NCBI GenBank assembly: GCA_049969615.1
Contig: JBMFOM010000004.1
Span: forward strand, 1-42,006
DNA length: 42,006 nucleotides
Source: a candidate division WOR-3 bacterium
GTDB lineage: Bacteria > Hydrothermota > Hydrothermia > JBDRYB01
Direction of reading: 5' to 3'
The position numbers and the translations under genes were made by a program. The notes under the pieces were generated by a model. That model ran no database searches and was not told the DNA's origin. It saw only the letters and a list, made by a program, of their open reading frames with translations. Position 1 is the stretch's first letter. Each line of letters begins with the position of its first letter. Positions 3,602-39,754 of the stretch are shown in pieces.

Positions 3602-3637
3602 CAAATGTTTGATCCTGCGTAGGGAGTAGGGTATAAT
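3602..3637 (+). promoter_or_regulatory. Conserved promoter module copy (DUF2520 gene)
   Basis: CAAATGT TTGATC CTGCGTAGGGAGTAGGG TATAAT. Confidence 0.75.
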
Positions 3638-3652
3638 CTTAATCTGAAACCA

Positions 3653-4582
3653 ATGATTGGCATTGTTGGCGCGGGAAATGTCGGTCTCTCCCTGGTGGGG
3701 GCTTTGGCCAAAAAGGCCTGTGATGTAATCCTGCTTTCGGATCACTACGAGGGCCCAATGCCCTTCATCGGACGTGGCAAAACGAGGGCTTTCCTTGAAG
3801 GATCCGATGCCGTGATAATAGCGGTCAAGGACAGGGAAGTCCGCGAGATGGCGAACTGGCTGGCCTCGGCCGGGGCTGAACTCGCGGGTAAGGTATTTTT
3901 GCACTGCTCCGGCGTGTGGGACTCCTCTGTCCTGACGAGCCTGGCGGAAAGGGGCGCGAGGGTTGGGGTTATGCATCCGATTCAAAGCTTCCCGAGGCCC
4001 GATCCGGACCTACTAAGCGGCATATATTTTGGAATATCCGGCGATCCGGAGGCTGAGGACCTGGCCGAGAAAATCGCAAGAACCCTCGGCTGTCGGACAA
4101 TAAGGGTGAGGGATCACGCCCTTTATCACGCGGCCTGTGTGATGTCTGCTGGGTTCATAGCGACCATGATGAGGCTCGCGGGCAAGGTCATTTCATTCGC
4201 GTCTGACGGGGATTGGCGCGCCCTCTTGCCCATGGCCAGGGGAACCCTGAAAAACATAGAGGACATGGGGCCGGAGAGGGCAACGACCGGCCCCCAGATC
4301 AGGGGGGACTGGGAAACGGTCGGGAGGCATTCCGAGGCCCTCCACATGTTTGATCCAGGCCTTGCCCTGCTTTATAATCTGCTTTCTGCTAAAATGAGCG
4401 AAGATAAGGACAAAAAAGAGCTTGATCCCCGCCTGTTGGAGGTTCTGGCTTGTCCAAAGTGCAAGGGCGAGCTGGAATACAGGAAGGACGAATCTGTTCT
4501 GCTTTGTCACGCGTGTCGGCTAAGATTCAGAATAGATGATGGTATACCCATAATGCTCATAGAGGAGGCAGAGGAATTCTGA
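3653..4582 (+). CDS. Rossmann-like/DUF2520 protein fused in frame to a Trm112-like (UPF0434) zinc-ribbon domain
   Basis: GIVGAGNVG, LHCSG, MHPIQSF, YHAACV and TGPQIRGD, then LLEVLACPKCKGEL..LLCHAC..FRIDDGIPIML. Confidence 0.85.
   Translation: MIGIVGAGNVGLSLVGALAKKACDVILLSDHYEGPMPFIGRGKTRAFLEGSDAVIIAVKDREVREMANWLASAGAELAGKVFLHCSGVWDSSVLTSLAERGARVGVMHPIQSFPRPDPDLLSGIYFGISGDPEAEDLAEKIARTLGCRTIRVRDHALYHAACVMSAGFIATMMRLAGKVISFASDGDWRALLPMARGTLKNIEDMGPERATTGPQIRGDWETVGRHSEALHMFDPGLALLYNLLSAKMSEDKDKKELDPRLLEVLACPKCKGELEYRKDESVLLCHACRLRFRIDDGIPIMLIEEAEEF
4350..4378 (+). promoter_or_regulatory. Intragenic promoter upstream of the Trm112 domain ATG (4394) and porU
   Basis: TTGATC-17 nt-TATAAT. Confidence 0.6.
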
Positions 4583-7500
4583 TGATCGATATGCTCCTTC
4601 TGGGAATACTTGCCCAGGCAATTGCTCCGGCGAGGACCGACGGTTCCCTATCCGCGAAACAACCTCCGGTTTCCGGACCAGCCCTGACCAGCGAAAGAGA
4701 CACATCCGCAGGCCTCACCATTATCTCATCAGACGAGAATCATCTCATATTTACCCTTGATTTTCCTTCGCCACAGTTCTCAACAGAGAACATCAACGGC
4801 AAACCGTTCCTGAGATTCTCCAACACAGGATGGGGCAAACCGGGTGAACCCGATCTGCCCGGCCGTTTGGTTAGCTTTGCCATACCGCGGGGAAAATCTG
4901 CACGAGTGAGTGTATCTGTCCTTGAGGAGAGCTCTTTTCTGGGCCCGGCTCCCCTCCCCTGCCCCAGGTATATTGACGATGGTTTGACCCCGGTGTATGA
5001 GGCCGGTAGATACGAGACGCCGTGGCCAAAATCAATCTGGGACGAGCGAAGCAGTGGGCTACTTCGCCATCTGAAATACATGAGCATCATCATCTATCCC
5101 TGTTCCTACAATGGCACGAGCTATACCTTCAGGAAAAAAATTAAGGTGAAGGTGGATTTTGTCCCGCAGGATGACGGCCTCGTCCAATTTTCTGGCTATG
5201 ACCCGTTTGATGAGATATATGCGCTGGAGCTGGTGAACTGGAAGGGCCAGTCCTCCTGGAAAGCCGCCCTGCCCACGAAAAAGGCCATCCCTGATCCGTT
5301 CTCGTCTGCCTCGGTATGGATAAAGGCTTATGTTCGCGAGCCAGGCATATATGAGATCAGCTACGAGGATATGACCCGCCTCGGCGTGGCCCCGGCTCTC
5401 CTTTCGGATCCGAACGGCCTCTCGGTATTTTCCATGGGTAACGACACCATGCGCTCTGATACCGGGCACAAGGAAACGATATTTTCCCAGGTTGCATCCA
5501 GGGTTGATGATGGCGGGGACGGGGTTTTTGGGCCAGGGGACCGGATCCTGTTTTACGCGGAGGGAATCCCGGACAGAAAATACAGCAGCCTGGATAGATA
5601 TTTTGATTACTGGAATCACCCATATACGGATACCGTTGTTTACTGGGTGGCAGTTGGGTTCAACGGAATACCTGAGAGGGCCGCGGCCAAGGACGCCAGG
5701 CCCTCGGCCGGAATCCCGTGCTCCACAAGCGTGGCCTATGCCCACCATGAGAAAAACGAGATAAACCTAGGCCAAAAGGGCATAATATGGGTCCAAAAGG
5801 AACCCACGCTTTCTCTTCCCCAGAGCTCCATGTATGCTGATTACCCGTTTGAAATGATCTGTAAAGGGGTTGGGACCGGACGAGGGACGATAAACATCGC
5901 TACGGTTGGAATTGCAATATCTGGCACGGGTGACGCCACCTACCAGGTCTGGCTGAACGGCCAGATGGTCGGCCAGTCATCAACGACCCCCGGCATGAGG
6001 AGGTTCTACAAGGTCCAGGTAACCAACCTCCGGGAGGGAACCAACACCGTTACAATACGTCTCATCAGAACGGATGAGTTCGCGAAAGAGATATATTTGG
6101 ATTACATTGACATAGAATACGATAGAAGGAACGAATATCCTGGCGAAACAAGCTTCTTCTTCCCGGATTCTGCGGATAATAGATACACGGTATTCGCGTG
6201 GGGGCCAAAGCCGGTTTTCCTTTGGGATGTGTCTGACCCGTTTAACCCGGTGGTGCTCAGAAATTTCACATGGGACAACGGTCAGCTCCAGTTCACGGAC
6301 TCGCTCTGGGGAGGCAAAAGAATATATCTCTCAACCTTCACCAGGAAACCGGTAAAGCTGGGCATTCTTGATCTCTCCGTGAACCTGCGCGATCCATCCA
6401 ACCGGGCCGACTACATAATATGCGGCCCAGATGTTCTCATGGAGCCATGCCGGGCGCTGGCGGATTGGCGAGCCGAAAACCTCTGGCTCTGGAATCCCTC
6501 GGATAGCGCGTGGGAAAATACCGGGGGCAAGGTTTTTTATGTCAGGCTTGAGGATGTCTATGATCAGTTCGGCTTCGGCATGAGGGACCCAGTGGCAATA
6601 AGAAACTTCTATTGGTATGCCTACGCATACTGGCAGACACCGCAGGTTACCTATTACCTGAACATGGGAGACGGAAGTTATGACTACAAAGGCTACAGGA
6701 CGACTGAGGGCAACCTGTTCCCGCCCTGGAATCCTTGGGAGTCGCACAGCCTTAACGATGGTCCCTGGACCCACGAGGACTTCTATCTTGATTTTGATGG
6801 CAATAATTATCAGGACGCGTTTTATGGCCGCGTCCCTGCTAGGGATAGGCGCGAGGCGTGGGATTATGTGACAAAGTTGAAGCGCTACGAGCGCGGGGAG
6901 GCGAACGGCCCGTGGCGGAACAGGGTTCTTTTGGTGCCAGATGACGAATACCACGAGGGCGGACAACCCGATCCCATACGAGATCACTGGGTCAACACCG
7001 ACACGCTTCAGAGATACTACATCCCCAGAACCATGGAGGTTCGCCACTGCTACGGCATAGAGTATCCCATGGAAGGAGGAATGAAGCCCCTGTGGACAGA
7101 TGATTTCATAAGGTATTTCAATGAGGGTAGCCTCCTGATAACCATGTTCGTCCACGGGTCTCCGACACAGATAACCCACGAGAGACTTTACCTGCTCTCG
7201 TCTGACCGGGACAGGATAAATGCTGGACCCAGAAACGCTTTCGTGCATGTACTCTCTTGCAAGGTCGGAATATTTGAGCGCATTGACCCCCCACACTGCA
7301 TAGGCGAGGACTGGACAATAAGGCCGGGTGGAGCAATGGGCGTTATATCCACAACATCTAACGCCACCTCCAGCGCGAATCGCTCATACGCCAAGGCCAT
7401 GTATAAGCTATTGATGGATTACAAACCCCACCCTGCAGGTGAATTTGAGCTGGCCGGCAAAAATGATGCTGACTATTATCTCTGCGGTGAACCAGGAATC

Positions 7501-8505
7501 CCGATAAGACTTCCGCCGCCGGATCTGAGCCTTACTGCGCCGGACACCCTAGTCCCTGGGACAAGAACAGACTTCTCCGGCTCAGACGCGACCTGGCCAC
7601 TGGTTTATCCTCTGGGCCTGGATACCAGGTATCTAAAGGAAGGTCAGACACATTTCGGCGACTATTATTCCATTGAATCTGAGGATTGGGCTGAGTATCG
7701 CGGAGCAATAAGTGCTTCCGGGAGCTTTTCCGGAAGCTATACCGTGCCCATGGACGCCAGGAGGGACACGGTGGGCGCGAGGCTCATCGTGTATGATCCC
7801 TCGCCACCCTTTGGCAGGGTTGGCCTGGTTGACAGCCTCTACACCTCACAACCAGGGAACTCCTCGGATATTAATGGCCCGGCAATATCCTTTTTCATGA
7901 ACGGCCATGAGCTCGTTGACGGGAACCGGATCCCATTCAAGGGAACAATTGAGTTCAGGGTTTCTGACCCATCGGGGATATACATAAGGCCAAGGGAATA
8001 CCCTGAGGATGGCGCATCCCTTATGTTCATACTTGATGACGAGGATCACGATGTAGCAACCAGTTTCCAGTATGACAAAAACTCTGACACATCGGGGTTT
8101 GGGTTCTATGATTATGACCTCTCCAATGAATCTGGCGCACATAGCTTCGGCCTACGAGCCTATGATAACATCGGCAACATAAACACCAGGATGATATCCT
8201 TGACAGTAGGAGAAACAGAGCTCTCGCTCACGGACGCCCTACCTGTGCCAAACCCGTTCACGGGCGGCAGACTTTATTTCTCGTTCAGGGTCAACGCTCA
8301 GGCCAGGGCCAGGGTAAAGGTTTTCACGGTCACAGGAAAAGAAGTCTGGAACTCAGGAGAAAAGCTGGCCAACCCAGGAATAAACTATGTCGCATACACG
8401 GGCCCGGATGTGGCGAACGGGCTTTATCTGGTAGTGTTTGAGGCAAAGGACCTCACGGGAGCCAGCAAACAGAAGGTCGTTGAGAAACTGCTGATAACGA
8501 AATAG
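4582..8505 (+). CDS. porU: C25 (gingipain-type) cysteine peptidase, PorU-like T9SS sortase, with propeptide and C-terminal sorting-like domain
   Basis: Signal peptide; GKPGEPDLP; GIYEISYED; DPVAIRNF; MGDGSYDYK; GRVPA; His/Cys dyad in FVHGS and LSCKVG; PVPNPF..VKVFTVTGKEV..ANGLYLV..KLLITK. Confidence 0.85.
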   Translation: MIDMLLLGILAQAIAPARTDGSLSAKQPPVSGPALTSERDTSAGLTIISSDENHLIFTLDFPSPQFSTENINGKPFLRFSNTGWGKPGEPDLPGRLVSFAIPRGKSARVSVSVLEESSFLGPAPLPCPRYIDDGLTPVYEAGRYETPWPKSIWDERSSGLLRHLKYMSIIIYPCSYNGTSYTFRKKIKVKVDFVPQDDGLVQFSGYDPFDEIYALELVNWKGQSSWKAALPTKKAIPDPFSSASVWIKAYVREPGIYEISYEDMTRLGVAPALLSDPNGLSVFSMGNDTMRSDTGHKETIFSQVASRVDDGGDGVFGPGDRILFYAEGIPDRKYSSLDRYFDYWNHPYTDTVVYWVAVGFNGIPERAAAKDARPSAGIPCSTSVAYAHHEKNEINLGQKGIIWVQKEPTLSLPQSSMYADYPFEMICKGVGTGRGTINIATVGIAISGTGDATYQVWLNGQMVGQSSTTPGMRRFYKVQVTNLREGTNTVTIRLIRTDEFAKEIYLDYIDIEYDRRNEYPGETSFFFPDSADNRYTVFAWGPKPVFLWDVSDPFNPVVLRNFTWDNGQLQFTDSLWGGKRIYLSTFTRKPVKLGILDLSVNLRDPSNRADYIICGPDVLMEPCRALADWRAENLWLWNPSDSAWENTGGKVFYVRLEDVYDQFGFGMRDPVAIRNFYWYAYAYWQTPQVTYYLNMGDGSYDYKGYRTTEGNLFPPWNPWESHSLNDGPWTHEDFYLDFDGNNYQDAFYGRVPARDRREAWDYVTKLKRYERGEANGPWRNRVLLVPDDEYHEGGQPDPIRDHWVNTDTLQRYYIPRTMEVRHCYGIEYPMEGGMKPLWTDDFIRYFNEGSLLITMFVHGSPTQITHERLYLLSSDRDRINAGPRNAFVHVLSCKVGIFERIDPPHCIGEDWTIRPGGAMGVISTTSNATSSANRSYAKAMYKLLMDYKPHPAGEFELAGKNDADYYLCGEPGIPIRLPPPDLSLTAPDTLVPGTRTDFSGSDATWPLVYPLGLDTRYLKEGQTHFGDYYSIESEDWAEYRGAISASGSFSGSYTVPMDARRDTVGARLIVYDPSPPFGRVGLVDSLYTSQPGNSSDINGPAISFFMNGHELVDGNRIPFKGTIEFRVSDPSGIYIRPREYPEDGASLMFILDDEDHDVATSFQYDKNSDTSGFGFYDYDLSNESGAHSFGLRAYDNIGNINTRMISLTVGETELSLTDALPVPNPFTGGRLYFSFRVNAQARARVKVFTVTGKEVWNSGEKLANPGINYVAYTGPDVANGLYLVVFEAKDLTGASKQKVVEKLLITK

Positions 8506-8515
8506 CTCTTTCTCT

Positions 8516-10079
8516 CTAGAACTCCTGTTCCTCCATTTCCCAAGGTTCTATCCTATCAATGGGTTCCAAGCGGAAATCGCCCTCGCCAGCGAACTTACCC
8601 GTGAACCTCTCGCCCTCTACCCTTAGAACGCAAATATAGATTCCTCGTGGCAGTGAAACGGGCGCGGAAAATTCTTTTCCGGCAAAACTCACGGCCGCAA
8701 CGCGCGCGCCCATGGAATTATAGACTTCAAGCGAAGCCGCGTCCACGGGCCTGGTTGCCTGTATGCTCAGGAGACCGCCGGAAAAGTTTCCCCTGAATGC
8801 GAGGTCGGGTTTTGGCGCTCCAGTATAGCCCTCGGTGATGTCAGTGGCACAATCAGTGTTGACCCACACATAGAGGTTGTTGTTGATGCCCGCGATGATG
8901 TCAACGCAACCATCGCGATTCACATCCTTGACCTCAACGCCATAGGAATACTGAGATGTCCCCGGCTCAACAGGCCACATCTGGAATGTCGGCGGATTGC
9001 CTCCCATGTTGTCAAACCAGGCTATAGTGTGGACGAGAGGCCTCATGGTGGAGACTATTATGTCCTGATCGCCATCGCCGTCAATATCAGCTATGCCCAC
9101 CTCGGACTCGGAGAGGCCGGGTAAGAAGGCGACGGTGTCCGCGAAATTGGAATAGACCGTAACCGGATTGAACCCTCCTGCTCCATTGCCCAGAAGTAGC
9201 ATAACATTCTGGTGACAACCCACAATGTCAAGGTTGCCATCGCCATTAACATCCCCTACCTGGATTCCGTGTCCGGCCTTCGTGTGAACCTGATAGGCAT
9301 TCCAGTTCAGCCCACCACCCAGGTTCAGGGCAACAGCAACGGGGCCCCATCCAGCGGACGCTATGTCCATCTGGCCATCATCGTTGAAATCACCAAGCGC
9401 AATGCCCTCACCATAGCCGGGCATAACAGTCCTCAAACCACCGCCGCCGGTTAGGTAGACATAGACAGCGCTGCCCTCATCCCCAAAAACGGCATCAAGG
9501 ATCCCATCACCATCAAAGTCCCACGCCGCGCAGTGGTTGGGAAAATCATACTCGCCCAAGTCAATGGGCGTCCAGCTGGGAGCGATGAGCCAGAAGGGAT
9601 GACCCCAGTACTCCCAGTCTCCCCAAGTATCCTCTTCGCCGTGATACCTGGCAGATGCATAAAGGATATCCTTGAGTCCATCGCCGTTCCTGTCGTCAAC
9701 ATCAAGGCCATATGGTGTCCTCACCTCAGGGCTTATGGCCTGAACAGAGAACACAGGAAAACCCTGATTGTAGGCGATATAAACTTGGCCCCACCACGGC
9801 TCATCTGAGTCCAGCGCCGTGAAAACGATATCTATATCATAGTCGTTGTCCATGTCGCACGCGGCATGGTGATTGGGCGCGAGAAACCATATCTGGCTCC
9901 TCTGTGAGGTTATGTAGGTCTTCACCCAGGTCACCTGGCCAGAGGGTATTAGAACAGGCTGGCTCGTCCCACCAGAGGACTGCGGCCAAAATCCCTCTCC
10001 GCTATCATCCTTCACATTCGGCAATCCCGCCCATCCCAGGGAGACCGCCAGGTATCATTCCTATGATCAGATACTTCAT
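8516..10079 (-). pseudogene. FG-GAP/VCBS repeat secreted protein with T9SS-like CTD; one-base frameshift in the signal peptide (pseudogene or sequence error)
   Basis: Repeated DxDxDGxxDI motifs. AGGAGG-ATG at 10079 is out of frame with the long ORF; removing one base near 10051 gives MKYLIIGMILAVSLGWAGLPNV. Confidence 0.75.
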
Positions 10080-10109
10080 CTTTACACCTCCTTGTTACCT
10101 AGACCAATT

Positions 10110-10145
10110 ACTATAACCTATTTTCTACGCGCGATCAAGTATTCG
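10110..10145 (-). promoter_or_regulatory. Conserved promoter module copy (FG-GAP gene)
   Basis: CGAATAC TTGATC GCGCGTAGAAAATAGGT TATAGT. Confidence 0.7.
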
Positions 10146-10210
10146 CGTTCGCTCGGTTCCGTCCACCCTTCCGGGCACAAATGGCCTCAGGTTGGCCTTT
10201 GCGTTAAACC

Positions 10211-10379
10211 CAACCCTGACACCAAAACCCTCATTTTAGGGGGTCTGTCCCTGGAAACCCGCGTAAAATCGTTGGTGAGGTCCTGAATTTTGCCCAAATA
10301 TGTAGTTCCAGCTTTTCAGGCCTGAAATTTATAAGTGCCTGTTCATCAAGAACTTACAGAAATTGAGGTGTCAAAGTTG
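10211..10379. repeat. Non-coding element bounded by imperfect inverted repeats (possible IS remnant or second MITE family)
   Basis: CAACCCTGACACC ... GGTGTCAAAGTTG (11/13 complementary); the same end recurs at 19521-19538 and 25386-25400. Confidence 0.5.
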
Positions 10380-10474
10380 AGTTTTGCGGCGCCCGGGGTC
10401 CAAAGATAGGCTGAGCAGTGTTATGTGGACTGATCCCTTGATAACTCAAGAGCCTCGCAATCTGCCGCAAAACT
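10380..10474. repeat. 95-bp segment with perfect 11-bp inverted ends
   Basis: AGTTTTGCGGC ... GCCGCAAAACT. Confidence 0.5.
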
Positions 10475-10478
10475 AGGG

Positions 10479-11648
10479 CTATAAAGCATCCCGTCCGCGA
10501 GACACCACTGCAATGGCCTCGCTAAAAATTCCCCTCATCCTATCCGCATATAAATCCGGATCAAAAAGACTATCCGCCCTCTCCCTGGCCCTCCTGCCGA
10601 GTTTTTCGCGCAAGCCATTGTCTTTCAAGAGCTCAATAACGGCGTCCGCGAGGGCCTCGTGATCAAAAGGTGGAACTAGGAGACCGGTATCCCCCATGAT
10701 CTCAGGTGCACCCCCGGTATCGGAAGATATGAGTGGTTTGCCCAGGGTCATTGCCTCGGCCGCAACCAGAGAATAACTTTCCCTGAAGCCACCGCGAGGG
10801 ACAGTCGTCTGAAGGACCAGGAGCGAGCCGGCCATCCACGCCATGTTCTCTTGCCAAGGAAGCGGCCCAAGAAACCTTACCCTTTCCAGGCCTAGCTCGC
10901 AGGCCAAGGAAACGAGGGATTCAGCGTGGGAGCCGGTTCCCGCTATGAAGAGATGCGCCCATGGAACCTCCCTTTCAACCATGGCCCAGGCCCTGAGGGC
11001 AATATCAACGCCTTTTTCTGGTGACAACCTCGCGGGAAGATAAACATATCTTTCCTTTTCGCCAACCGGCGGGTGCAATTCTGGCATGAGTATTGGGTTA
11101 TAGACAACCTTCACTTTGCTCACATCAATCCCGAGCTCGGCTATCCTGCTCCGCAGGTTTTCTGAAACAGCAACAGCAACAGTGGCGGATTCCAGGCTCT
11201 TCTGAAGTAGTTGATCCGCTAGCCTTACTATGGGATGGTCGGGCGGATGGCCTGAGGCCCTCATCAGCTCGGAATCAACGCTGTGAATGTGAACAACCCA
11301 AGGCAATCCTGCCCGATTGAGAAAATCCGCCAAAAGGCCCCCGCAGAATGTGCCGTGGATGTGGATGACATCAGGGCGCGCGATGTCGAGCTCTCGCCTG
11401 AGCACCTTAATCATCTCCGGCCTAACGAGCCACCTGAAAAAAGTCAGTTCAAAGGGGGTTCTGGTCACGATGGCAATGAGGCGTGCGAGACGCTGACGGC
11501 TCCGAGGAGGCGGATGTAAGTTAACGGGGTGAATCAGGATCTTATAATCAAGACCCCGGGAGCGAAGTATCTGTTCGGCAATTTCCATGTGGGTCCAGAC
11601 ACCCGTAACAGCACTTTTCCCAGCGAGAGTCATCGCGTAGACCTTCAT
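10479..11648 (-). CDS. Glycosyltransferase family 4 (GT-B)
   Basis: RPDVIHIH, AVSE, RLSPEKG, ESYSLVAAEAMTLGKPLISSDTGG. Confidence 0.92.
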   Translation of the reverse strand: MKVYAMTLAGKSAVTGVWTHMEIAEQILRSRGLDYKILIHPVNLHPPPRSRQRLARLIAIVTRTPFELTFFRWLVRPEMIKVLRRELDIARPDVIHIHGTFCGGLLADFLNRAGLPWVVHIHSVDSELMRASGHPPDHPIVRLADQLLQKSLESATVAVAVSENLRSRIAELGIDVSKVKVVYNPILMPELHPPVGEKERYVYLPARLSPEKGVDIALRAWAMVEREVPWAHLFIAGTGSHAESLVSLACELGLERVRFLGPLPWQENMAWMAGSLLVLQTTVPRGGFRESYSLVAAEAMTLGKPLISSDTGGAPEIMGDTGLLVPPFDHEALADAVIELLKDNGLREKLGRRARERADSLFDPDLYADRMRGIFSEAIAVVSRGRDAL

Positions 11649-14238: not shown

Positions 14239-14297
14239 TTGATCATACCAGTCTAATTGGACATACACGAGGCCTGTTGGGCGCCGTCAATGCTTCC

Positions 14298-14648: not shown

Positions 14649-14699
14649 AAACCTCCGCTACTTGCCATATTTTAAGGCAAGAGCACGCGCCGCGGCAGG

Positions 14700-19536: not shown

Positions 19537-19572
19537 CATTTAAATGATCTCGCGAAGAAAATGGGTTATAAT
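19537..19572 (+). promoter_or_regulatory. Conserved promoter module copy (DUF2085 gene)
   Basis: CATTTAA ATGATC TCGCGAAGAAAATGGGT TATAAT. Confidence 0.65.
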
Positions 19573-19578
19573 CTATCC

Positions 19579-20241
19579 CTGCACAAGATAGTTGAAATAG
19601 CCTTCTTTCTATGTGGCGCTGTCTGCCACCAGTTGCCGGCGCATTCCCTTCACCCTGGTGGACACCAGCTTCCCCTCTGCGCCCGTTGCACGGGAATCCA
19701 CTTCGGCCTATGGGCAGGTTTCTACTTCCTGTTGGTCCTCAGGAGACGTAAGCTTGGAATAGTGCCGAATTGGAAGGTCGCTATCGCGATAGCGGTCTCG
19801 CTTGCGATTATGGCTGGGGATGTTCTGACAGGCTTACAGGGATGGCAGGCTGCGGCCAACGAGCGAAGGCTAGCCACTGGACTCTTGACCGGTTATTCCC
19901 TGGCCTTGCTTATGGGGCCAGTGCTCGCGGGCATAAACAGGAACGAGGCCACGAAATCAAACCTGGGTTGGGCTGATCTGGGCTTGGGCGCGTTTCTGGT
20001 CGCGTGTCTGTGGCCATTACTGTTTTATACGCCTGGGTGGATGTCATATCCCCTCACTATCTTTGAGGGCCTTTCGGTCATAGGGGCATACGCTGTTGTT
20101 TGGGGAGTCCTGATCGCCTACACGACATTCGCGGCCAGAAATAGACCCATTCCCTGGTGGCTATGGATAGGCGGAGGGGTAATAGTATCGTTAATACAGG
20201 CTGTTCTTATGGGAGCGTTGAGAATCAGGCTGGGCATATAG
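19579..20241 (+). CDS. DUF2085 family membrane protein (start uncertain: CTG 19579 or ATG 19561)
   Basis: VCHQLPAHS..GGHQLPLCARCTGI motif; multiple TM helices. Confidence 0.85.
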   Translation: MHKIVEIAFFLCGAVCHQLPAHSLHPGGHQLPLCARCTGIHFGLWAGFYFLLVLRRRKLGIVPNWKVAIAIAVSLAIMAGDVLTGLQGWQAAANERRLATGLLTGYSLALLMGPVLAGINRNEATKSNLGWADLGLGAFLVACLWPLLFYTPGWMSYPLTIFEGLSVIGAYAVVWGVLIAYTTFAARNRPIPWWLWIGGGVIVSLIQAVLMGALRIRLGI

Positions 20242-21688: not shown

Positions 21689-22770
21689 TAGTTGGGCTAG
21701 GGCTATTGCTCTCCTGCTCCAGGAAACCGCCAGAGCGCTATCTGCTTTTTACAGGTTCGCTTTCTGGTTATCTGGAGGCCTGCTCCTGCCCCGGAACACC
21801 TGAAGGGGGACTCAACGCGGCCACACACCTGGCAAAGGAATTCAGAAAAAAGCATCCTGACGCTCTTCTAGTTGATGCAGGCTGTTTTACTTCCGATACA
21901 ACGGATACACTGAACACCTGGTTCATGACAAGGGGCATGATAACAGCTGGATACGACGCGGTAGCGATTGGTGTCTGCGACACACAGGATAAATATGCTG
22001 GCCTGTGGAACAGCCTGCCGGTTCTGGATGAAAAAAGGCCCTGGGTGGTCATAAGGGGTATTCTCTTGGTCAGGGTAATGGATGAAAGGCCACCCGACCT
22101 ATCCGGCGCCCATTCTTATGACTACACTGTATTCCTGTCATCAGCCGGCAGGGAAACCGACGAGGCCTTGGCAAGGAACCATGGCCCGGACGCCATAATA
22201 GAGGCAAGGGGAGAATTCCAGTCATTCAACATTGGAAAAACACTCATAGTCCCATCGGTCCCAAGAGGAATGTCCCTTGGGGTTCTGAAACTGAGAGCGG
22301 AGGGCGCGGAGGCCTGGTTCATACCGGTAAAACCGGAGACACCGACCGATCCGGAGGTCAACATGGTTCTTGACGAATACAATCAGGCTTACAGGGCACA
22401 TATCCAGAGGATCGGGGCAAAGATGAGCTTCCGCGGGCCAGGGTTCTGCAAGTTCTGTCACAAGGAAGAATATGAGGTTTGGAAGGCCTCGGAACACGCG
22501 CACGCTTTTGAGACCCTGGTTGAGGACGGGAGAGTTGACAACCCCTGGTGTCTTATCTGTCACACAACGGGTTTTGGCAAGGGAGGATTTGTTGACCCAG
22601 AAAAAACTCCACAACTAGTCGGCATAACCTGCGAGGCATGTCATCCGGGGGGCAAGTGCCCGGAAAACCCACCGCCAAAGGGGAATCTCTCCGAGTGCAG
22701 GGTTTGCCACACCCCGGATCAAAGCCCAGGGTTCAACGAATCCAGATACTGGCAGAAGATAAAGCATTGA
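21670..22770 (+). CDS. Lipoprotein: UshA/metallophosphoesterase-like N-terminus plus tetraheme c554-like cytochrome domain
   Basis: LLLSC lipobox; GYLEACSC..GGL, LLVDAG, GYDAVAIG; four CxxCH motifs (CKFCH, CLICH, CEACH, CRVCH). Confidence 0.85.
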   Translation: MHRFILIVGLGLLLSCSRKPPERYLLFTGSLSGYLEACSCPGTPEGGLNAATHLAKEFRKKHPDALLVDAGCFTSDTTDTLNTWFMTRGMITAGYDAVAIGVCDTQDKYAGLWNSLPVLDEKRPWVVIRGILLVRVMDERPPDLSGAHSYDYTVFLSSAGRETDEALARNHGPDAIIEARGEFQSFNIGKTLIVPSVPRGMSLGVLKLRAEGAEAWFIPVKPETPTDPEVNMVLDEYNQAYRAHIQRIGAKMSFRGPGFCKFCHKEEYEVWKASEHAHAFETLVEDGRVDNPWCLICHTTGFGKGGFVDPEKTPQLVGITCEACHPGGKCPENPPPKGNLSECRVCHTPDQSPGFNESRYWQKIKH

Positions 22771-22776
22771 TAATCC

Positions 22777-22817
22777 GAGACCTCTGACAAAGTAGCAATA
22801 ACTTACTGGTTGGGGGC
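22777..22817. mobile_element. Partial MITE copy (GAGACC end)
   Basis: gagacctctgacaaagtagcaataacttactggttggggg is nearly the reverse complement of 25810-25850. Confidence 0.8.
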
Positions 22818-22988
22818 TAAACCCTCTCCGGGCTTCAGAATAGGCGGAGTCCACTACACCGGCTCCGAGCTTATAGACGAGTGGTTTAAGGGTGCCCATG
22901 ATCTTGAACCGTATCTTGACGCTGATTCGCTTTGCCGGCCTATCTGTCCAGGAACCACCGGGGGAATGTTTCGTGTTCTGACCACGGT

Positions 22989-23024
22989 CAAATACTTGTT
23001 CCTGCACAGGAAATGGATTACAAT
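22989..23024 (+). promoter_or_regulatory. Conserved promoter module copy (znuA), containing the palindrome TTCCTG-CA-CAGGAA
   Basis: CAAATAC TTGTTC CTGCACAGGAAATGGAT TACAAT, 6 nt before ATG 23031. Confidence 0.75.
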
Positions 23025-23030
23025 TTCAAC

Positions 23031-23849
23031 ATGAGGAAATTTTTGGCTATACTCGTGCTTGCTTTGTCTTGTCAGAATGAGCATAGCGCGCCAATCGTTG
23101 CCACCATATATCCCTTGACCTCCATAACCATGGCCATAGCTGGCGATGAATTCCGGGTGATCGGCATTGTCCCGCCGGGCGCAAACCCTCATGCATACGA
23201 GCCAACGCCAAAAAATGTGGCCGCGCTATCGGGCGCGAGGGTCGTCATCTACGCCGGGCCGCTTATGGAGCCGTGGGTTCCGAGAACTGGCACAAAGGCT
23301 ATTCTGGTTGATGCGTCTGCGGCTGGTAAGATGCTCGTAAATGATCCGCATGTCTGGCTTGATCCGGAAAGAGGAAAGCTGATAGCCAGTTCGGTAGCGG
23401 TCGCGCTCTCCGAGGCCTGGCCAGAGAAAAAAGAAGTGTTCCAAAACAACCTTACCAGTTTCAACGCCCGCGTTGACAGCTTTGACACCTGGTTTAGGTC
23501 AGAGCTCTCCTCGGTCAAAGACAGGAGGTTCGTTTCGGTTCACCCCGCTTGGAGGTATCTTGCCGCTCGCTACGGCCTTCTGGAGGTTGCCAGCCTGGGA
23601 GCAGGAGAAGGCGGAGAAGTATCCCCGATGACCCTCACCACCACCATAGAAACCATGAAGAGGGAGGATGTCCACGCGGTCTTTGGCGAGCTGGGTTCCT
23701 CTTCGCCCTACACCAGGACTCTGGAGTATGAAGCCGGTGCGAAAGTGGCCAGGCTTGACCCTATAGGAAACCCTGGTGACACGGCCAGAGACGACTATGT
23801 TGACCTCCTCTATTACAACGGGAGGGAAATCATCAGGGTTCTGAAATGA
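23031..23849 (+). CDS. znuA: Zn/Mn ABC transporter substrate-binding lipoprotein
   Basis: MRKFLAILVLALSC lipobox; NPHAYEP, DPHVWLDP, HPAWRYLA. Metal specificity cannot be determined from sequence alone. Confidence 0.9.
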   Translation: MRKFLAILVLALSCQNEHSAPIVATIYPLTSITMAIAGDEFRVIGIVPPGANPHAYEPTPKNVAALSGARVVIYAGPLMEPWVPRTGTKAILVDASAAGKMLVNDPHVWLDPERGKLIASSVAVALSEAWPEKKEVFQNNLTSFNARVDSFDTWFRSELSSVKDRRFVSVHPAWRYLAARYGLLEVASLGAGEGGEVSPMTLTTTIETMKREDVHAVFGELGSSSPYTRTLEYEAGAKVARLDPIGNPGDTARDDYVDLLYYNGREIIRVLK

Positions 23850-25346: not shown

Positions 25347-25551
25347 AGGCATGATGAGTCGCACAGCCCCGTTGCTGTGTCCAAGCTCATATTTGACACC
25401 CCCATTTTTTCAATTCGTTTATTGATAAGGAATCCCAAGGATCAAGAGGCAAAATTTCGGCACTAGCTTGGTCTAGAAAGGCCGTTCGGCAGAAGATAAA
25501 TCTGCTCCTTATATCTCTTTGGCATCATGACCTATTTCAATGGCCTCAAAG

Positions 25552-25623
25552 AGCCACCGGAGGGACTTGAACCCACAACCTACGCCTTACGAAGGCGCCG
25601 CTCTGCCGTTGAGCTACGGTGGC
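25552..25623 (-). tRNA. tRNA-Thr(CGT), CCA not encoded
   Basis: GCCACCG TA GCTC AACGGCA GAGC G GCGCC TT CGT AA GGCGT AGGTT GTGGG TTCAAGT CCCTC CGGTGGC T cloverleaf; one U-U mismatch in the T stem. Confidence 0.95.
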
Positions 25624-30513: not shown

Positions 30514-30571
30514 GAGGGGGTCGCGTTCCGCCGAGAATTCAACTCGCGACTTGGTTTATCATTTGTAATCC

Positions 30572-32365: not shown

Positions 32366-32961
32366 GGCCGAGGCCGGAGGAGGTCCTTCCGGAGACCAGA
32401 AGGGTTCTGGCAAGGGCCGGATGCCCACCGGATCGTGGAGAAGCATTCGTTGAGATCGCGAGGGCCGTTGCCGGAAAGCTCATAACGCTCGCCAAACCCG
32501 CAGCTTTCTCGGTTGATCTCCCGGTAATGGGGATTGGTCCAGACATCGTTGAGCTGGACGGGCTTACCATTTCTTCATCGGATATGGTAAAGAAGCTCTC
32601 CGAGGCCGAGACGGTGAGCCTGTTTCTCGCCACAATAGGGGCCGAGCCTGAAGAGGAATGTCGTGCCCTTGGCGAGGGAAACAGGCTAATCGAGGCCCTC
32701 TTGCTTGATTCTGCGGCATCGGAAATGGTTGAAAGGCTTCTCCGGCTGGCACACCTGGATACGGCAAAACGAATGTCCGGGTTCGTCGGAACTGCTAGAT
32801 ACGCGCCCGGCTACGGGGATTTCTCTCTGAGCCACCAGGTCAGAATAGTTGAAGTGTTGGGTGGCGACGAGACCGGAGTCAGGGTGATGCAGGATTCATT
32901 CATGCTGATTCCGAAAAAGAGCACAACGGGGATTATAGGATGGAAAAGGCAAAGGAATTGA
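32347..32961 (+). CDS. Stand-alone methionine synthase activation (AdoMet-binding) domain
   Basis: FLATIG, LLDSAASE, RYAPGYGD, MLIPKKSTTGIIG. Confidence 0.88.
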   Translation: MEKRVMRPRPEEVLPETRRVLARAGCPPDRGEAFVEIARAVAGKLITLAKPAAFSVDLPVMGIGPDIVELDGLTISSSDMVKKLSEAETVSLFLATIGAEPEEECRALGEGNRLIEALLLDSAASEMVERLLRLAHLDTAKRMSGFVGTARYAPGYGDFSLSHQVRIVEVLGGDETGVRVMQDSFMLIPKKSTTGIIGWKRQRN

Positions 32962-35282: not shown

Positions 35283-35304
35283 CGCTATCCGTTGCGGGTC
35301 GTCC

Positions 35305-35991
35305 TCACTTCAGTTTCAGTCCCCATACTGCTAGCGATTCCTCAGTTATTACAAGCGCGCCAAAGACGCCTTCGGCTCCCTTTATCGCCAGAAGCGCTCC
35401 CTCTGGATCGTTGTCCAAGAGGGCCTCGTTGCCAAGCCTGGTTGCCCACGCATCCGCCAGAGCGCCGCTTTCAGCGACCACGGTCGCGGCCCATGCCCTG
35501 CCGAGGCTCAGGGAAAGCCCGAGTTTCCCTGATGAAGTAGCAATGCCCCATGAACCAGGAGGAACTGTGATCCTCGGCCCCGGAAGCTTCGGGTTCCCGG
35601 AGAAGACCTCAAACACCCTCTCTCGGCTGGTCCTCATAAAAACATCCCCACCGTTCTCTGCGGCCACATCGCCATGATATGCCATCACGACTCTCTCCGC
35701 GAAGGCACCGGCGACCGCGGCCATTGGCCCAACACCAGCGGCCTTGCCGGCTTGTGCCATATTAATCGCTACGGCCGGTGCGCCCGGCAAGGGTTCCAGT
35801 GGGTCAAGACTCCTGCCGAATACTGGATGCCTCTCCAGATACCCTTCCATTTCCTCCCATAGGCTCACGATTATCCGTGCCCCTGGCGTGGCATCAATTG
35901 GATTTTCGGAGCCAAGGAGAATATCTGTTTTGCGGTGGACTATCCTCGCCCGGTAAGGCCATCCAGAGACCCTTTCCCTATAAGGTTTCAT
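35305..35991 (-). CDS. UPF0280/COG2122 ApbE-like protein (sulfur assimilation)
   Basis: VGPMAAVAG, ENGGD, GIATSSG..SLSLG, ADAWAT..GN. Confidence 0.9.
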   Translation of the reverse strand: MKPYRERVSGWPYRARIVHRKTDILLGSENPIDATPGARIIVSLWEEMEGYLERHPVFGRSLDPLEPLPGAPAVAINMAQAGKAAGVGPMAAVAGAFAERVVMAYHGDVAAENGGDVFMRTSRERVFEVFSGNPKLPGPRITVPPGSWGIATSSGKLGLSLSLGRAWAATVVAESGALADAWATRLGNEALLDNDPEGALLAIKGAEGVFGALVITEESLAVWGLKLK

Positions 35992-36374
35992 TCAAATGCT
36001 TCCAGCGCGCCGGTTGGGCATGAGTCCAAGCAGAACAGGCAGAATATGCAGAGCGCCGAGTCAAAGACGAGGCGATCATCCTCGCCCATGCAAAGCGCTC
36101 CGGAGGGGCAGACTCCTGAGCAGGAGCCACAGTCAACGCAGAGTTCATCGCGTCTGGCTATCTTGTCGGAGAGTGGATAAACCGCAACACCCCGTTCCTT
36201 CAACCATACTATTGCGCTTTCGGGATCAGGCCCTATGTCCACTACCATCTCGCCGTCCTCGGTCTGGGTGACCCTTGCCCGCAGGATGTTAACCTCGGCG
36301 CCATGTTCCTTGATGAGCGCGGTGATTATGGGCTTGTCCACTATGTCCTTCGGAAAATGCAGGAATAGTTTCAT
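35988..36374 (-). CDS. NIL domain / 2x[4Fe-4S] ferredoxin (MA1822-like partner of the DUF39 enzyme)
   Basis: KPII..VNILRA; CVDCGSCSGVCP and CIFCLFCLDSCP; GGAGG RBS before ATG 36374. Confidence 0.9.
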   Translation of the reverse strand: MKLFLHFPKDIVDKPIITALIKEHGAEVNILRARVTQTEDGEMVVDIGPDPESAIVWLKERGVAVYPLSDKIARRDELCVDCGSCSGVCPSGALCMGEDDRLVFDSALCIFCLFCLDSCPTGALEAFE

Positions 36375-36375
36375 C

Positions 36376-37521
36376 TCATACCTCCCATGGGAGTGAACGC
36401 CCTTCAATCGGCAGGGGCCTTACATATGGCGATAACTTGAAACGCCCCTCTTTTACCCATGATTTCAGTGTTTCGGCGACCTGCCTTGATATTCTCATGC
36501 TCGTTCTTGAACCTGTCCTCGCCCGCTTCCCCATTATCTCCACCCATCCGGTTCTCAACTCCCGATAGCTCAGCTCTTTGACCACTGGCCTCTGCCTCCT
36601 AGCCACACCATAGTCCAGGATAACTGTCTTTAGCTGGCTGTCAGGCCTTGAACATGTCTCGGCCAGGTCCTCGTCCAATATGGGAATAGCAAGGCCTATT
36701 CCGAGGAAAAGGCTCACACCGTATCCCGGCACATATGCAGCTCGTAGGAAGTCCGGGTTCATCTCCTTCAAATTTCCTATCAGGGCAAGTGTCGCACCGG
36801 GGGTTATTGGTAGCCCGGCCGAGTCGCGTTTTGGATTAGCATTGAACTGGGTCCCCTCCCACGCGACATGCCCTATTGCCCCTCCAAGGAACACCTTTGT
36901 CCCGATTCCAACCGTCCTGAGGTTTGGGTCCTTCAAGAGGGGAGAAAGCTCCCCGGATGTGGCATACATGACATTCCCATATCCCGGCAGGAGCTTTCCC
37001 ATGTATGTGTAGAGGATACGGGATGAGGAGTTTGTCGCGGCGGCATAGTTTTGATAAAGGTTTCTGGGATTGAAGAGGAACGCCTGATTCAGGTTCTTCA
37101 GGGTAATCTCTCCCTCCACTGATTTCCGCGGATAACAATCAGACCTTGCGCCTTCTGCTCGGAACCTCACGGACTCGCCGCGTATCAAAGCCTCTATAAC
37201 ATGCGCGCCACCATATCTCTGGTCAGTCAAAGAGACCTGCGTCGCGCCGAGATACAAGTCAACAGCGGCTATGCCTCCGTATGCCTCTACATCATTCAGA
37301 AATGCTCTCTGGAAGCGGGACGGAGGGTCTGTATGGCCGGTGTTCAGAAATAGCCCTGAGGAGCACATCATCCCGAATGTCCCAGTTGTTATGACATCTA
37401 CCTTTTCCGCTACTGACTTCACTCCCTCTGTCTCCCGGAGCCTCGCGGCCTCCTCCGCGGTGAGGACTACCACCTCACCCCGGGCTATCTTCTCGTTTAT
37501 CTCTTCAAGACTTCTATGCAT
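36376..37521 (-). CDS. DUF39 homocysteine biosynthesis protein (L-aspartate semialdehyde sulfurtransferase, MA1821/MJ0100-like), without CBS pair
   Basis: EINEKI..VVLTAEE, VDVITTGTFGMMCSSG, YGGAHVIE, RNLYQNY, YTYMG, SGELSPL. Confidence 0.92.
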   Translation of the reverse strand: MHRSLEEINEKIARGEVVVLTAEEAARLRETEGVKSVAEKVDVITTGTFGMMCSSGLFLNTGHTDPPSRFQRAFLNDVEAYGGIAAVDLYLGATQVSLTDQRYGGAHVIEALIRGESVRFRAEGARSDCYPRKSVEGEITLKNLNQAFLFNPRNLYQNYAAATNSSSRILYTYMGKLLPGYGNVMYATSGELSPLLKDPNLRTVGIGTKVFLGGAIGHVAWEGTQFNANPKRDSAGLPITPGATLALIGNLKEMNPDFLRAAYVPGYGVSLFLGIGLAIPILDEDLAETCSRPDSQLKTVILDYGVARRQRPVVKELSYRELRTGWVEIMGKRARTGSRTSMRISRQVAETLKSWVKEGRFKLSPYVRPLPIEGRSLPWEV

Positions 37522-37600
37522 CTTGTCTCCTTTGGGTTAAATGCCGGGCCAATGGCTGGTCGGAATGATATATGAGACGGTGGGGGTTTGATCCGGAGTT

Positions 37601-37694
37601 GACGAAGGGATCAGGCCTTTGCCCGTTGAATGGGCAGACTTCCCCTAGCCGGGGATTGGCTAGCCTGACACATGTCATCCTTCGTCCTCTTCAT
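37601..37694 (-). promoter_or_regulatory. Candidate structured leader with a 27-aa uORF (37694-37611) upstream of the homocysteine operon
   Basis: TTGAAC-18-TATACT promoter 8 nt before ATG; MKRTKDDMCQASQSPARGSLPIQRAKA; nested helices GACGAAGG/CCTTCGTC, TCAGGC/GCCTGA, TAGCC/GGCTA, TGCCC/GGGCA. Confidence 0.55.
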
Positions 37695-37728
37695 GGCCCA
37701 AAAGTATAATGACTGGGTCAATGGGGGT

Positions 37729-38085
37729 TCAAGTTGATATAACAAATTTGACGGCCTCCAGTGAGACAACCAAGTGATACACGGTCACATCAAAGTCTAT
37801 CCAAGCGTTGTCCTCGCCGCCCATCTCGCTTATCCATTGTGAGAACATGTTCGCTGGGCCGGTTGAGCCGTTGAACATCAGGCGCTCGGTCATGTGCGCC
37901 ATACCTCCTTAGCAGTCATTCTCGTTGGCCGACCCAACCATATACTACATCTGGATAGCCGTGATACCGGCCGCCGTATCCTCCACGACCAGAACCCTCA
38001 TCCCGTTTTCCATAGCTGTGTCCCTCACCGGTACATGTGGTAAGAGGAGGTTGACGCAGGACAGAAAAAGGAAGACCAAACTCAT
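37729..38085 (-). pseudogene. M16 (insulinase/PqqL-like) zinc peptidase N-terminal remnant
   Basis: ..ENGMRVLVVED..QM*YMVGSANENDC*GGMAHMTERLMFNGS..MGGEDNAW; stops at 37945-47 and 37909-11; HxxEH has become HxxER; truncated. Confidence 0.85.
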
Positions 38086-38125
38086 TGGAGGATTCCCCTA
38101 TGGCGGATGCTATTGGGGCTCAGTA

Positions 38126-38479
38126 TCAAAGTGGATATTCGGGCCTGAACGCATCCTTATAGTGCTTTATTCCCTCTGGGGTCACGGATACGGCGTCAAA
38201 CCTGACCTGGACGCCATCCAGGTTCATCTGTGTTATGAAGCGCTCCGCGGTCAAAGCTATGCGCTTGCGTTTTCTCTCGTCAACGGACTCAAGCGGTTCG
38301 GCCGCCACGGAAGCACTGCTTTTTACTTCCACGAAAACCAGAATGTCGCTGTCCCAAGCAATTATATCGGCCTCCCCACCCCTGATGGTGAAGTTCCTGG
38401 CTATTATAACATAACCTAATGACCTGAGAAACTCAGCAGCTTCCCGTTCAGCGCGCCTTCCGATTTCTACAGTCCCTAT
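38126..38479 (-). CDS. yraN: YraN (UPF0102) family protein, apparent ATA start
   Basis: Frame open upstream of the called ORF: IGRRAEREAAEFLRSLGYVIIARNF..GEADIIA..LVFVEVKS..RFD. Confidence 0.85.
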   Translation of the reverse strand: MGTVEIGRRAEREAAEFLRSLGYVIIARNFTIRGGEADIIAWDSDILVFVEVKSSASVAAEPLESVDERKRKRIALTAERFITQMNLDGVQVRFDAVSVTPEGIKHYKDAFRPEYPL

Positions 38480-38480
38480 A

Positions 38481-38984
38481 TTAATCCTCTCCTTCCTTAT
38501 GCTCAGTGGCTTCCGGTATCTTAGGCTCGGCTGGCTCGGTGGTCATCTCTTCTGCCGAAGGCTCGGGTCCTGGCGCGGCTGGCTTGAGGGCATTGAGCTC
38601 CTCGGCAGAAAGCCTTCTATCCTTGAGCTTAGCGTGTTTGCCTATCCTGCCCCTGAGGTATCCCAGATTTGCTCGCCTCACCTTCGCCCTCTTGACTATC
38701 TCTATTCTCTCCACAGAGGGCGAGGCCAGGGGGAATATCCTCTCAACGCCTATGCCGGCCGAGATCTTCCTGACGATTATGCTTTTCCCTATGCCTTTGC
38801 CCCTTTCCGCTATTACAACGCCTTCATAGGCCTGGAGCCGGACCTTTTCTTCTGGCTTCTTAGTTTTTGGGTTCACCCTTACCTCTTTTACCTTAACATA
38901 AACCCTTACGGTATCTCCGGGCCTCACTTTTGGGAGGTCGGACCGGGCAAAAGAGGACTCAATGGCCCTTATCAGATCTTCCAC
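38481..38984 (-). CDS. rplS: 50S ribosomal protein L19
   Basis: RPGDTVRV, RLQAYEGVVI, VRKIS.GIGVERIFP, VRRANLGYLR; Pro/Glu-rich tail. Confidence 0.97.
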   Translation of the reverse strand: MEDLIRAIESSFARSDLPKVRPGDTVRVYVKVKEVRVNPKTKKPEEKVRLQAYEGVVIAERGKGIGKSIIVRKISAGIGVERIFPLASPSVERIEIVKRAKVRRANLGYLRGRIGKHAKLKDRRLSAEELNALKPAAPGPEPSAEEMTTEPAEPKIPEATEHKEGED

Positions 38985-39711
38985 AGTTCTTCTCCTCTTT
39001 CAACGATTCTCGCAAAATCTCCATATCGTCAGACCCCGTGTTCCTTCTCGCCAGGAGGTCTGGACGCAGGCGCAAAGTATAAAGCAAGGCCTGGCGCTTA
39101 CGCCACTTTTCTATCCTGGCATGATCGCCTGACAGAAGAACCGCGGGCACCCCAAGACCTAGGTATTCCCTGGGTTTTGTGTATGACGGATGGCCAAGCA
39201 TGTTCTCTTCAAAGGAATCATCCCTCGCGGAATCCTGGTCTCCCAGTGCTCCAGGCAGGAGCCTGGCTACAGCATCCAGCAATATGATCCCCGGCCCCTC
39301 TCCTCCTGAGACAATCAAGTTTCCCACCGAAAACCCTTCGTCAGCCCAGCGCATAACCCTCTCGTCAATGTCCTTATAGCGGCCGCATACTATTACCAGG
39401 TGAGGCTGGGCCGCGAGCTCCTTTATCCATTCCTGACAGAGAAGTCTGCCCCTAGCGCTCGCCACGAGAACCATTCCCCCCTCGTCCGAGGTCGCGTCGG
39501 TTATTGCCCTTATCAAAGGTTCTGGTCTCAGCACCATGCCCGGCCCACCGCCAAAAGGGTAGTCGTCCGTGTCCTTGGGGGTTTTGGCGTAATGCTTTGG
39601 GTTCAGGAACCTAACCTGAAGGCTTCCCGCCTCGGATGCGGCCCTAGGCGGTCCGAATTTCAGCCATTGGCTTATAAGCTCGGGGAACAGGGTTATGAAG
39701 GTTATTTTCAA
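38959..39711 (-). CDS. trmD: tRNA (guanine-N1)-methyltransferase
   Basis: ITLFPE, DDYPFGGGPGMVL, CGRYKDIDER, SGGE, YTKP, LLSGDHA; start TTG 39711. Confidence 0.96.
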   Translation of the reverse strand: MKITFITLFPELISQWLKFGPPRAASEAGSLQVRFLNPKHYAKTPKDTDDYPFGGGPGMVLRPEPLIRAITDATSDEGGMVLVASARGRLLCQEWIKELAAQPHLVIVCGRYKDIDERVMRWADEGFSVGNLIVSGGEGPGIILLDAVARLLPGALGDQDSARDDSFEENMLGHPSYTKPREYLGLGVPAVLLSGDHARIEKWRKRQALLYTLRLRPDLLARRNTGSDDMEILRESLKEEKNCGRSDKGH

Positions 39712-39718
39712 TGGAGAA

Positions 39719-39754
39719 ATTATAGCCCACTTCCTGTGCAGGATCAATTATTTG
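39719..39754 (-). promoter_or_regulatory. Conserved promoter module copy (trmD)
   Basis: CAAATAA TTGATC CTGCACAGGAAGTGGGC TATAAT, 7 nt before the TTG start. Confidence 0.75.

Follow-up and report, generated by a model that had tools for sequence, protein, structure and literature searches.

A promoter module repeated in a Hydrothermota genome as the probable outward-facing end of a lineage-specific MITE-like repeat family

The stretch of DNA analysed, hereafter the window, is the whole 42-kb contig JBMFOM010000004.1 (42,006 nucleotides) from the genome of an uncultured hot-spring bacterium of candidate division WOR-3 in the phylum Hydrothermota (GCA_049969615.1; 2.06 Mb, 203 contigs, 53% G+C). 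It contains five copies of a promoter module in which the spacer between the -35 and -10 boxes is repeated along with the boxes, and these copies head genes of the otherwise unrelated families DUF2520, FG-GAP, DUF2085, ZnuA and TrmD. The five copies had been described in an initial annotation, and re-reading of the window reproduced their coordinates, strands and sequences, the families of the genes that follow and, by count over the five copies, the seven invariant spacer positions (nnGCnnAGnnAnTnGnn); contigs from one DNA sequencing run, present as short low-depth pieces, were identical to the window. [quoted passage not shown]

The first copy (3602..3639, forward strand) has its -35 box TTGATC at 3609-3614, the spacer CTGCGTAGGGAGTAGGG and its -10 box TATAAT at 3632-3637, and is followed after 15 nt by the ATG, at 3653, of a gene encoding a DUF2520/Trm112p-like protein. 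The second (10108..10145, reverse strand; TTGATC at 10138-10133, TATAGT at 10115-10110) is followed by a Shine-Dalgarno motif and a 24-codon open reading frame (ORF) with its ATG at 10078, 30 nt on, and then by the FG-GAP gene (10024-8519), the start of which lies 85 nt past the -10 box. This small ORF (MKYLIIGMIPGGLPGMGGIAECEG; 10004-10078, reverse strand), lying behind a strong Shine-Dalgarno motif between the module and the FG-GAP gene, could be a leader peptide or small protein. The third copy (19537..19574, forward strand) has the variant -35 box ATGATC and TATAAT at 19567-19572, with the TTG start of the DUF2085 gene at 19633, 60 nt past the -10 box. The two remaining copies are of leaderless type: the fourth (22989..23026, forward strand; TTGTTC, and TACAAT at 23019-23024) ends its -10 box 6 nt before the ATG of znuA at 23031, and the fifth (39717..39754, reverse strand; TTGATC, and TATAAT at 39724-39719) ends its own 7 nt before the TTG of trmD at 39711. 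Against the genome-derived 38-nt position weight matrix (PWM) described below, the five copies score 48.9, 37.0, 36.2, 49.0 and 59.0 bits, respectively.

Repeated DNA lies upstream of four of these copies, and the claim of the initial annotation that four of the five are near MITE remnants is roughly right, with three instances found by BLAST and one by eye. A dispersed intergenic repeat at 3352..3544 (forward strand), 58-250 nt 5' of the first copy, has up to 138 other genomic matches and a depth of about 50 in a low-coverage DNA run, and its repeat type (cluster 2) directly adjoins the module elsewhere in the genome. Upstream of the second copy is a repeat mosaic (10155..10427, reverse strand) that includes a partial type-A repeat at 10382-10427 and 91 nt co-linear with the sequence upstream of another module copy. 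A dispersed repeat block at 22766..22825 (unstranded; up to 89 genomic matches) lies 164-223 nt upstream of the fourth copy. Directly upstream of the fifth, at 39755..39785 (reverse strand), is a remnant of the end of the type-A repeat (..GTTCGGCCTCACCAGATACA), recognised by eye against the alignment as approximately 25 nt of that repeat and not detected by BLAST.

Across the genome the module has the consensus CAAATAC TTGATC CTGCGCAGGAAGTGGGT TATAAT tT, 36-38 nt in length, and its TTGATC-N17-TATAAT core fits a sigma-70-type spacing of 17 +/- 1 nt, 23 copies having an 18-nt spacer. A strict regular expression for the spacer and a TAnnnT box found 53 genomic sites, nearly all reading ...TTGATC CTGCGCAGGAAGTGGGT TATAAT, and a 28-nt pattern allowing up to two mismatches found 94 sites against none in a reversed-sequence control. 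The 38-nt PWM gave 211 matches at 10 bits or more, exactly five of them in the window, and none in the reversed control. Scores were nearly bimodal with few intermediate values (219 matches reached 6 bits, 181 reached 25 and 137 reached 40), indicating that the family is discrete and does not grade into ordinary promoters. The 28-nt pattern, at the same tolerance, was absent from 30 relatives, among them two congeneric species (G001, 86% complete, and G002, 95% complete), and exact scans for the module in public genome and metagenome contig collections gave no match. The motif is thus far above chance in this genome and absent from the relatives scanned. Repeated 20-mers ending in TATAAT were likewise not found in a 400-kb sample of G002 or in a 125-kb sample of G001.

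The flanks of the 211 copies are strongly asymmetric. On the downstream side just 24 copies show any similarity to the flank of another copy, whereas on the upstream side 170 do, with alignments of median length 59 nt and up to 300 nt. The statement in the initial annotation that similarity ends just outside the module therefore holds for the 3' side, where it stops after TATAATnT, but not for the 5' side, where in 119 copies co-linear homology reaches to within 12 nt of the module and continues outward into shared repeats. There are at least six upstream repeat types, every one of them joined to the module at (C)AAATAC, and the commonest (type A, approximately 115 nt) has 77 genomic matches, 53 of which carry the module at their 3' end. 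The far, or left, ends of the repeat units share the motif CCCAGATTTTGCGGCAGG, which occurs 66 times in the genome against once in the control and is preceded by TATAA (with at most one mismatch) in 34 of those 66 occurrences, compared with 1.2% of random positions. A module follows the motif within 420 nt in 21 of the 66 cases and, counted from the modules, 30 of the 211 have a left end within that distance, giving a modal unit of approximately 180-210 nt and two minimal units of 50 nt. With TATAA at both ends, the composite appears to be bracketed by the -10 consensus of the genus, as ...TTATAA/CCCAG...GTGGG/TTATAAT. Solo copies have diverged further from the consensus than composite ones (29.4 against 31.2 of 38 positions matching, p=0.0013) and many of them retain short repeat remnants, both of which fit a loss of the unselected upstream part with age. 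Outside this species the left-end 18-mer gave 29 exact single matches in unrelated taxa, near a chance estimate of approximately 17.

Comparison with orthologous loci in the two congeners suggests that the module is a recent addition. The 108 leaderless-type genes driven by a module were searched for in the samples given above, and 15 loci in G002 and nine in G001 passed filters on the N-terminus and on identity. In G002, 14 of the 15 loci keep TATAAT 6-10 nt before the start and the last has TATGAT at 11 nt, while the -35 box and spacer of the module are present in none of the 15, although at one locus (C91) the 3' half of the spacer resembles that of the module. In G001 all nine loci have a -10 box without the -35 and spacer of the module, and identity resumes exactly at TATAAT. 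The empty-site comparison suggested by the initial annotation thus finds the module missing, and unrelated promoter sequence in its place, at 24 of 24 loci. Both congeners have the -10 box of trmD and of znuA at the same distance from the start as in the window, with unrelated sequence at the module position; upstream of znuA an older spacer, AATATCyTATAAT, is common to G001 and G002 and missing here, which makes the state in this genome the derived one. The direction of change therefore appears to be a gain in this lineage. Among the pairwise alignments, one locus shows a clean 30-nt insertion directly 5' of TTATAAT, and larger gains are seen where a repeat accompanied the module.

The positions of the copies are those of promoters. 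A start codon or tRNA 5' end lies 4-20 nt past the -10 box in 124 of the 211 copies (about 58%): the start codon of an ORF of at least 80 aa is 4-12 nt away in 110, a leaderless architecture, and a tRNA gene follows within 20 nt in 14. Counted with ORFs of at least 60 aa, the first start codon is 6-9 nt away in 83 copies. The remaining copies comprise 45 ahead of an ORF with a Shine-Dalgarno-like motif, 25 ahead of an ORF without one and 17 with nothing within 300 nt. The -10 box has decayed in 28 copies, 27 of which fall outside the leaderless-ORF and tRNA classes. Seen from the tRNA genes, a module stands no more than 120 nt upstream of 15 of the 43, and for 14 of these the distance is within 20 nt, with tRNA-Lys and tRNA-Glu beginning 7 and 9 nt past the -10 box. 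Nine further genes driven by modules beyond the window again belong to unrelated families, namely radical SAM, BioY, YchF, ACT, two GT4 glycosyltransferases, DAHP synthase, class II aldolase and FG-GAP. At the 16S rRNA gene (L070, G000:C2:47700-48800, G000 being this genome) a module and its repeat stand approximately 85 nt upstream of a second, genus-conserved promoter. Judged from this geometry, from which both activity and transcription start sites are predicted, the copies are likely to be working promoters giving mostly leaderless transcripts.

Leaderless architecture as such is general in the genus. TAnnnT boxes peak 6 and 7 nt before the starts of long ORFs genome-wide, with 191 boxes outside modules standing 6 nt away and 102 standing 7 nt away over a background of about 35-60, and both this peak and the form tTATAAt.T recur in the 400-kb sample of G002. 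The approximately 290 leaderless-type promoters of this genome that lack the module read TTGaa-N18-..gg.tTATAATtT, and their other spacer positions each carry 0.2 bit or less.

These observations support the proposal of the initial annotation that the module is a self-propagating mobile promoter, insofar as they show a discrete, lineage-specific family that is joined to MITE-like repeats and occupies places where relatives have unrelated promoter sequence, with transposition as the putative means of movement. The module end places its -35 box at exactly 17 nt from a -10 box that also matches the genus-wide consensus tTATAAt, and under this explanation copies would have replaced resident promoters by bringing a new -35 box and spacer while keeping the old -10 position in register, so that transcripts would still begin at, or immediately beside, the start codon or the 5' end of the tRNA. 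Selection would then hold both hexamers in copies that drive genes, while the spacer and upstream repeat would drift, mainly by transitions, and older copies would shed their upstream part to become solo modules, the whole expansion having probably taken place in this lineage after its split from the congeners. Integration into TTATAA sites, that is, into -10 boxes, may explain the register. A more tentative extension, possible but doubtful, is that the element homes to promoters, targeting the TTATAA core of the host -10 box such that the -35 box in its end, 17 nt from the junction, rebuilds a strong promoter in register. If so, about one third of the leaderless promoters, one third of the tRNA promoters and one rRNA promoter would have been overwritten without breaking expression.

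Several observations weigh against a mobile element. A copy-by-copy test showed no target-site duplication, the two flanks of the same unit agreeing at 3.38 of 6 positions against 3.40 of 6 for unpaired flanks (n=21), and TTATAA could belong to the ends of the element itself rather than to its target. Inverted repetition of the two termini is weak, with 12 of 18 positions matching, a value that 3 of 5000 shuffles attained and that was spotted post hoc; TTATAACCCA and TGGGTTATAA are symmetric solely when TTATAA is included in the element, and the left end pairs far better with an inverted copy inside the repeat. When a separate element of 100 nt bounded by perfect inverted ends was sought, that inner inverted copy alone was re-found, without duplicated flanks, and no autonomous element with the ends of the family (TTATAACCCAGATTTTGCGG...) was found. 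Across six loci anchored upstream, intergenic length differs by -293 to +100 nt (median +5), and one locus resembles a block replacement of nearly equal length, values that suit conversion-like replacement equally well as insertion followed by deletion. As for a spacer shared merely by descent, TGATC is 99% invariant, beyond the normal requirement of a -35 box, and the similar spacer mismatch per site in working copies (0.179, n=113) and in copies with a dead -10 box (0.190, n=28; p=0.75) is a comparison in which the dead class is biased towards good spacers, having had to pass the PWM without a score from its -10 box.

Part of this evidence fits an alternative in which promoters were homogenised by gene-conversion-like or microhomology copying anchored on tTATAATtT, the MITE-like repeats being mere neighbours. 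The 3' boundary of the module always lies on a block common to nearly all promoters of the genus, the locus with an equal-length block replacement has conserved flanks on both sides, and both the median net length change and the negative test for duplication are as such copying would have them. Its 5' extent is also ragged, starting at TTGATC, at CAAATAC or far upstream, and there are promoters that share solely the 3' half of the module. At least eight of these last, however, are explained otherwise: a second promoter family, of at least eight copies, consists of the right end TGGGACAGGCTC of an insertion sequence (IS) fused to the 3' half of the module AAARTGGGTTATAAT, from which it follows that an element has landed in module spacers and re-created a hybrid promoter there, and that nested insertion operates in this genome. 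Further, the abutment of the far end of the composite on TTATAA in 34 of 66 cases is not predicted by recombination, and the greater divergence of solo copies is that expected from loss of the upstream part with age. Homologous recombination also needs far more than an anchor of 6-9 nt on one side and none on the other. Copying between promoters appears unlikely.

The MITE-like origin has also to be set against the possibility that the spacer is an operator, i.e. that it and the palindrome TCCTGCGCAGGA, which is 12 nt long, perfect in the consensus and overlaps the -35 box, are recognised by a lineage-specific global regulator of a regulon of approximately 200 promoters, possibly spread by the repeats. 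The palindrome itself and the near-invariance of TGATC would favour this, as would the slightly better preservation of the spacer relative to the linked repeat in an unbiased set of 45 copies picked by the upstream repeat alone, in which the spacer agrees with the consensus at 0.756 of positions, the -35 box at 0.844, the -10 box at 0.778 and the linked repeat at 0.692, against 0.359 for the downstream flank. However, the palindrome is intact in only 28 of the 211 copies, its positions are substituted in 12-33% of copies, and pairs changed doubly to complementary bases occur only at the rate expected from independence across the 211, so that no compensatory change is apparent. Spacer substitutions comprise 506 transitions against 235 transversions, unlike the changes in the hexamers, which are mostly A/T transversions, the first T of the -35 box being A in 63 copies. 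The undescribed regulator put forward in the initial annotation is therefore quite improbable: its operator would have decayed without compensation, would be kept equally well where the -10 box is dead, would be absent from the orthologous promoters of both congeners at 24 of 24 loci, and would control targets without a common theme (tRNAs, rRNA, transport, cell envelope and housekeeping).

Methylation at GATC was considered separately and set aside, GATC not being depleted in the genome (ratio 0.91). Other tetranucleotides are depleted genome-wide, with TCGA, GTAC and ACGT found at 0.04-0.09 times the expected frequency, CTAG at 0.28 times and TGCA at 0.40 times, a depletion that probably reflects restriction-modification pressure.

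The other reading in the initial annotation, an extended element in the spacer read by RNA polymerase or a sigma factor and brought by selection to a species-specific optimum, draws on the weak gg.t just 5' of the -10 box and the T at -5 that also occur in promoters without the module and on the genus-conserved native rRNA promoter, TTGATC-N17-TATAAT with AAATCGGT before its -10 box, but it is very improbable, since the rest of the spacer is uninformative in the approximately 290 other promoters and in G002, sigma-A regions 2-4 (the last 330 residues) are 92% identical between this genome and each module-free congener, the presumed regions 2.4, 3.0 and 4.2 either match exactly or show single conservative changes, no extra sigma gene is present, and convergence would not produce identity over 38 nt together with transition-type drift and shared upstream repeats. 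A lineage-specific sigma factor is likewise rejected as a candidate, each of the three genomes having four sigma-70-family genes of matching sizes.

As to where the module came from, the native 16S promoter is kept in G002 and shares with the module the -35 box and 8 of 17 spacer positions, which is suggestive only of a possible source. An origin in a tRNA promoter was rejected, as the module is present at none of six tRNAs sampled from the two congeners, five of which have ordinary spacers and one of which lies behind another tRNA.

The search for a mobilising enzyme centred on the two DDE_Tnp_1 genes of the genome and on Y1_Tnp fragments. One of the former lies in an IS (L046, G000:C82:3591-7283, at about 709-2426) that encodes a 499-aa transposase behind its own leaderless-type promoter and has the inverted ends GAGCCTGTCCCA and TGGGACAGGCTC, different from those of the module family; the other is interrupted by a contig end. 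Mobilisation by an IS200/IS605-type (Y1) transposase or by a transposase associated with repetitive extragenic palindromes (RAYT) was rejected because the genome holds only fragments of 41-61 aa, beside an unrelated hairpin repeat; one Y1 gene is present in G002 and none in G001, a genome that is 86% complete. The idea that the module is itself a repetitive extragenic palindrome (REP), or REPIN, hairpin was also dropped, there being no compensatory covariation in its palindrome. The Y1_Tnp fragments (IS200/RAYT-like), at G000:C39:1-600 and C73:1-260, adjoin tandem REP-like hairpins of CCCCG..ATAAAT..CGGGG types, and hairpins of this kind recur at many contig ends with 93-100% identity, where they probably break the assembly.

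Among known systems, the Correia elements of Neisseria (CREE/NEMIS) and other promoter-bearing MITEs are among the closest in kind, being small gene-less repeats present in hundreds of copies, the ends of which give promoter elements to their neighbours. Unlike in the Correia elements, what survives in this genome is an entire core promoter, its spacing fixed at 17 nt, in register with the resident -10 box and leaderless. Enterobacterial BIMEs (bacterial interspersed mosaic elements) and REP mosaics are intergenic and built of a few units variously combined, but they are not promoters and lie mostly 3' of genes; the family described here resembles them as a mosaic of recombined units and differs in its promoter role and in the absence of hairpin covariation. 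By the usual description of a MITE the family is short, non-coding and dispersed, with filled and empty sites; its inverted ends are weak, the copy-by-copy test gave no target-site duplication and no autonomous partner with the same ends was found. Outward -35 boxes borne by ISs form hybrid promoters in a similar manner, the element end giving the -35 box and the junction the -10 box, but the present family is far larger, has no linked transposase gene and has landed repeatedly on the -10 box itself. The 'TA-led' leaderless genes of Deinococcus-Thermus and Actinobacteria likewise have TANNNT 6-8 nt before the start in hundreds of genes; that style is general and common to this genus, and does not explain a repeated -35 box and spacer.

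The putative mobile promoters described in 2012 by Matus-Garcia, Nijveen and van Passel are also alike in being highly similar upstream sequences before non-homologous genes within a genome. According to a commentary on that work (PMC3575422), they are defined at -150 to -50 by an identity of 80% or higher across 50 nt or more, occur mostly as pairs and have their mechanism left open, and Correia elements are cited there as promoter-supplying repeats. The family in this genome differs in having 211 members, down to 30-50 nt in length, at -45 to -5. Composite copies would meet the 2012 definition, whereas the 36-38-nt module alone is too short and too gene-proximal, such that most solo copies would escape that screen. 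A literature search found no mobile promoter tied to leaderless starts, and the family is set apart by its scale, by the complete core promoter as the surviving unit and by the in-register replacement of leaderless promoters, the module being estimated to drive roughly one third of the recognisable leaderless promoters and 14 of 43 tRNAs. The movement of promoters between bacterial genes is poorly understood, and approximately 200 like events in one genome, with congeners preserving the state before them, constitute a natural data set on how a genome tolerates, or benefits from, wholesale promoter replacement, on whether an element can target -10 boxes and on how much of the conservation of a spacer is shared ancestry. 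A caution for motif-based regulon prediction also arises, in that even a strong palindrome shared by 200 promoters may be something other than an operator.

Some additional features were observed at tRNA genes of the genome and in the window. Approximately 31 of the 43 tRNAs have a TATAAT-like box 7-14 nt before the mature 5' end, so that their precursors would be nearly leaderless at that end; the tRNA-Thr of the window lies at 25551-25623 (reverse strand), and this short-leader layout also holds for five of the six tRNAs sampled in the congeners. The absence of RNase P was rejected as a reason, as an RNase P RNA is present, interrupted by a contig end. At G000:C24:2228-2409 two module copies face each other approximately 100 nt apart with tRNA-Pro (2276-2351) between them, one module thus being directed antisense into the tRNA. 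Within the window, the DUF2520/Rossmann-like protein encoded at 3653-4579 (forward strand) has a Trm112p-like zinc-ribbon domain at its C-terminus (residues 258-297), an unusual fusion.

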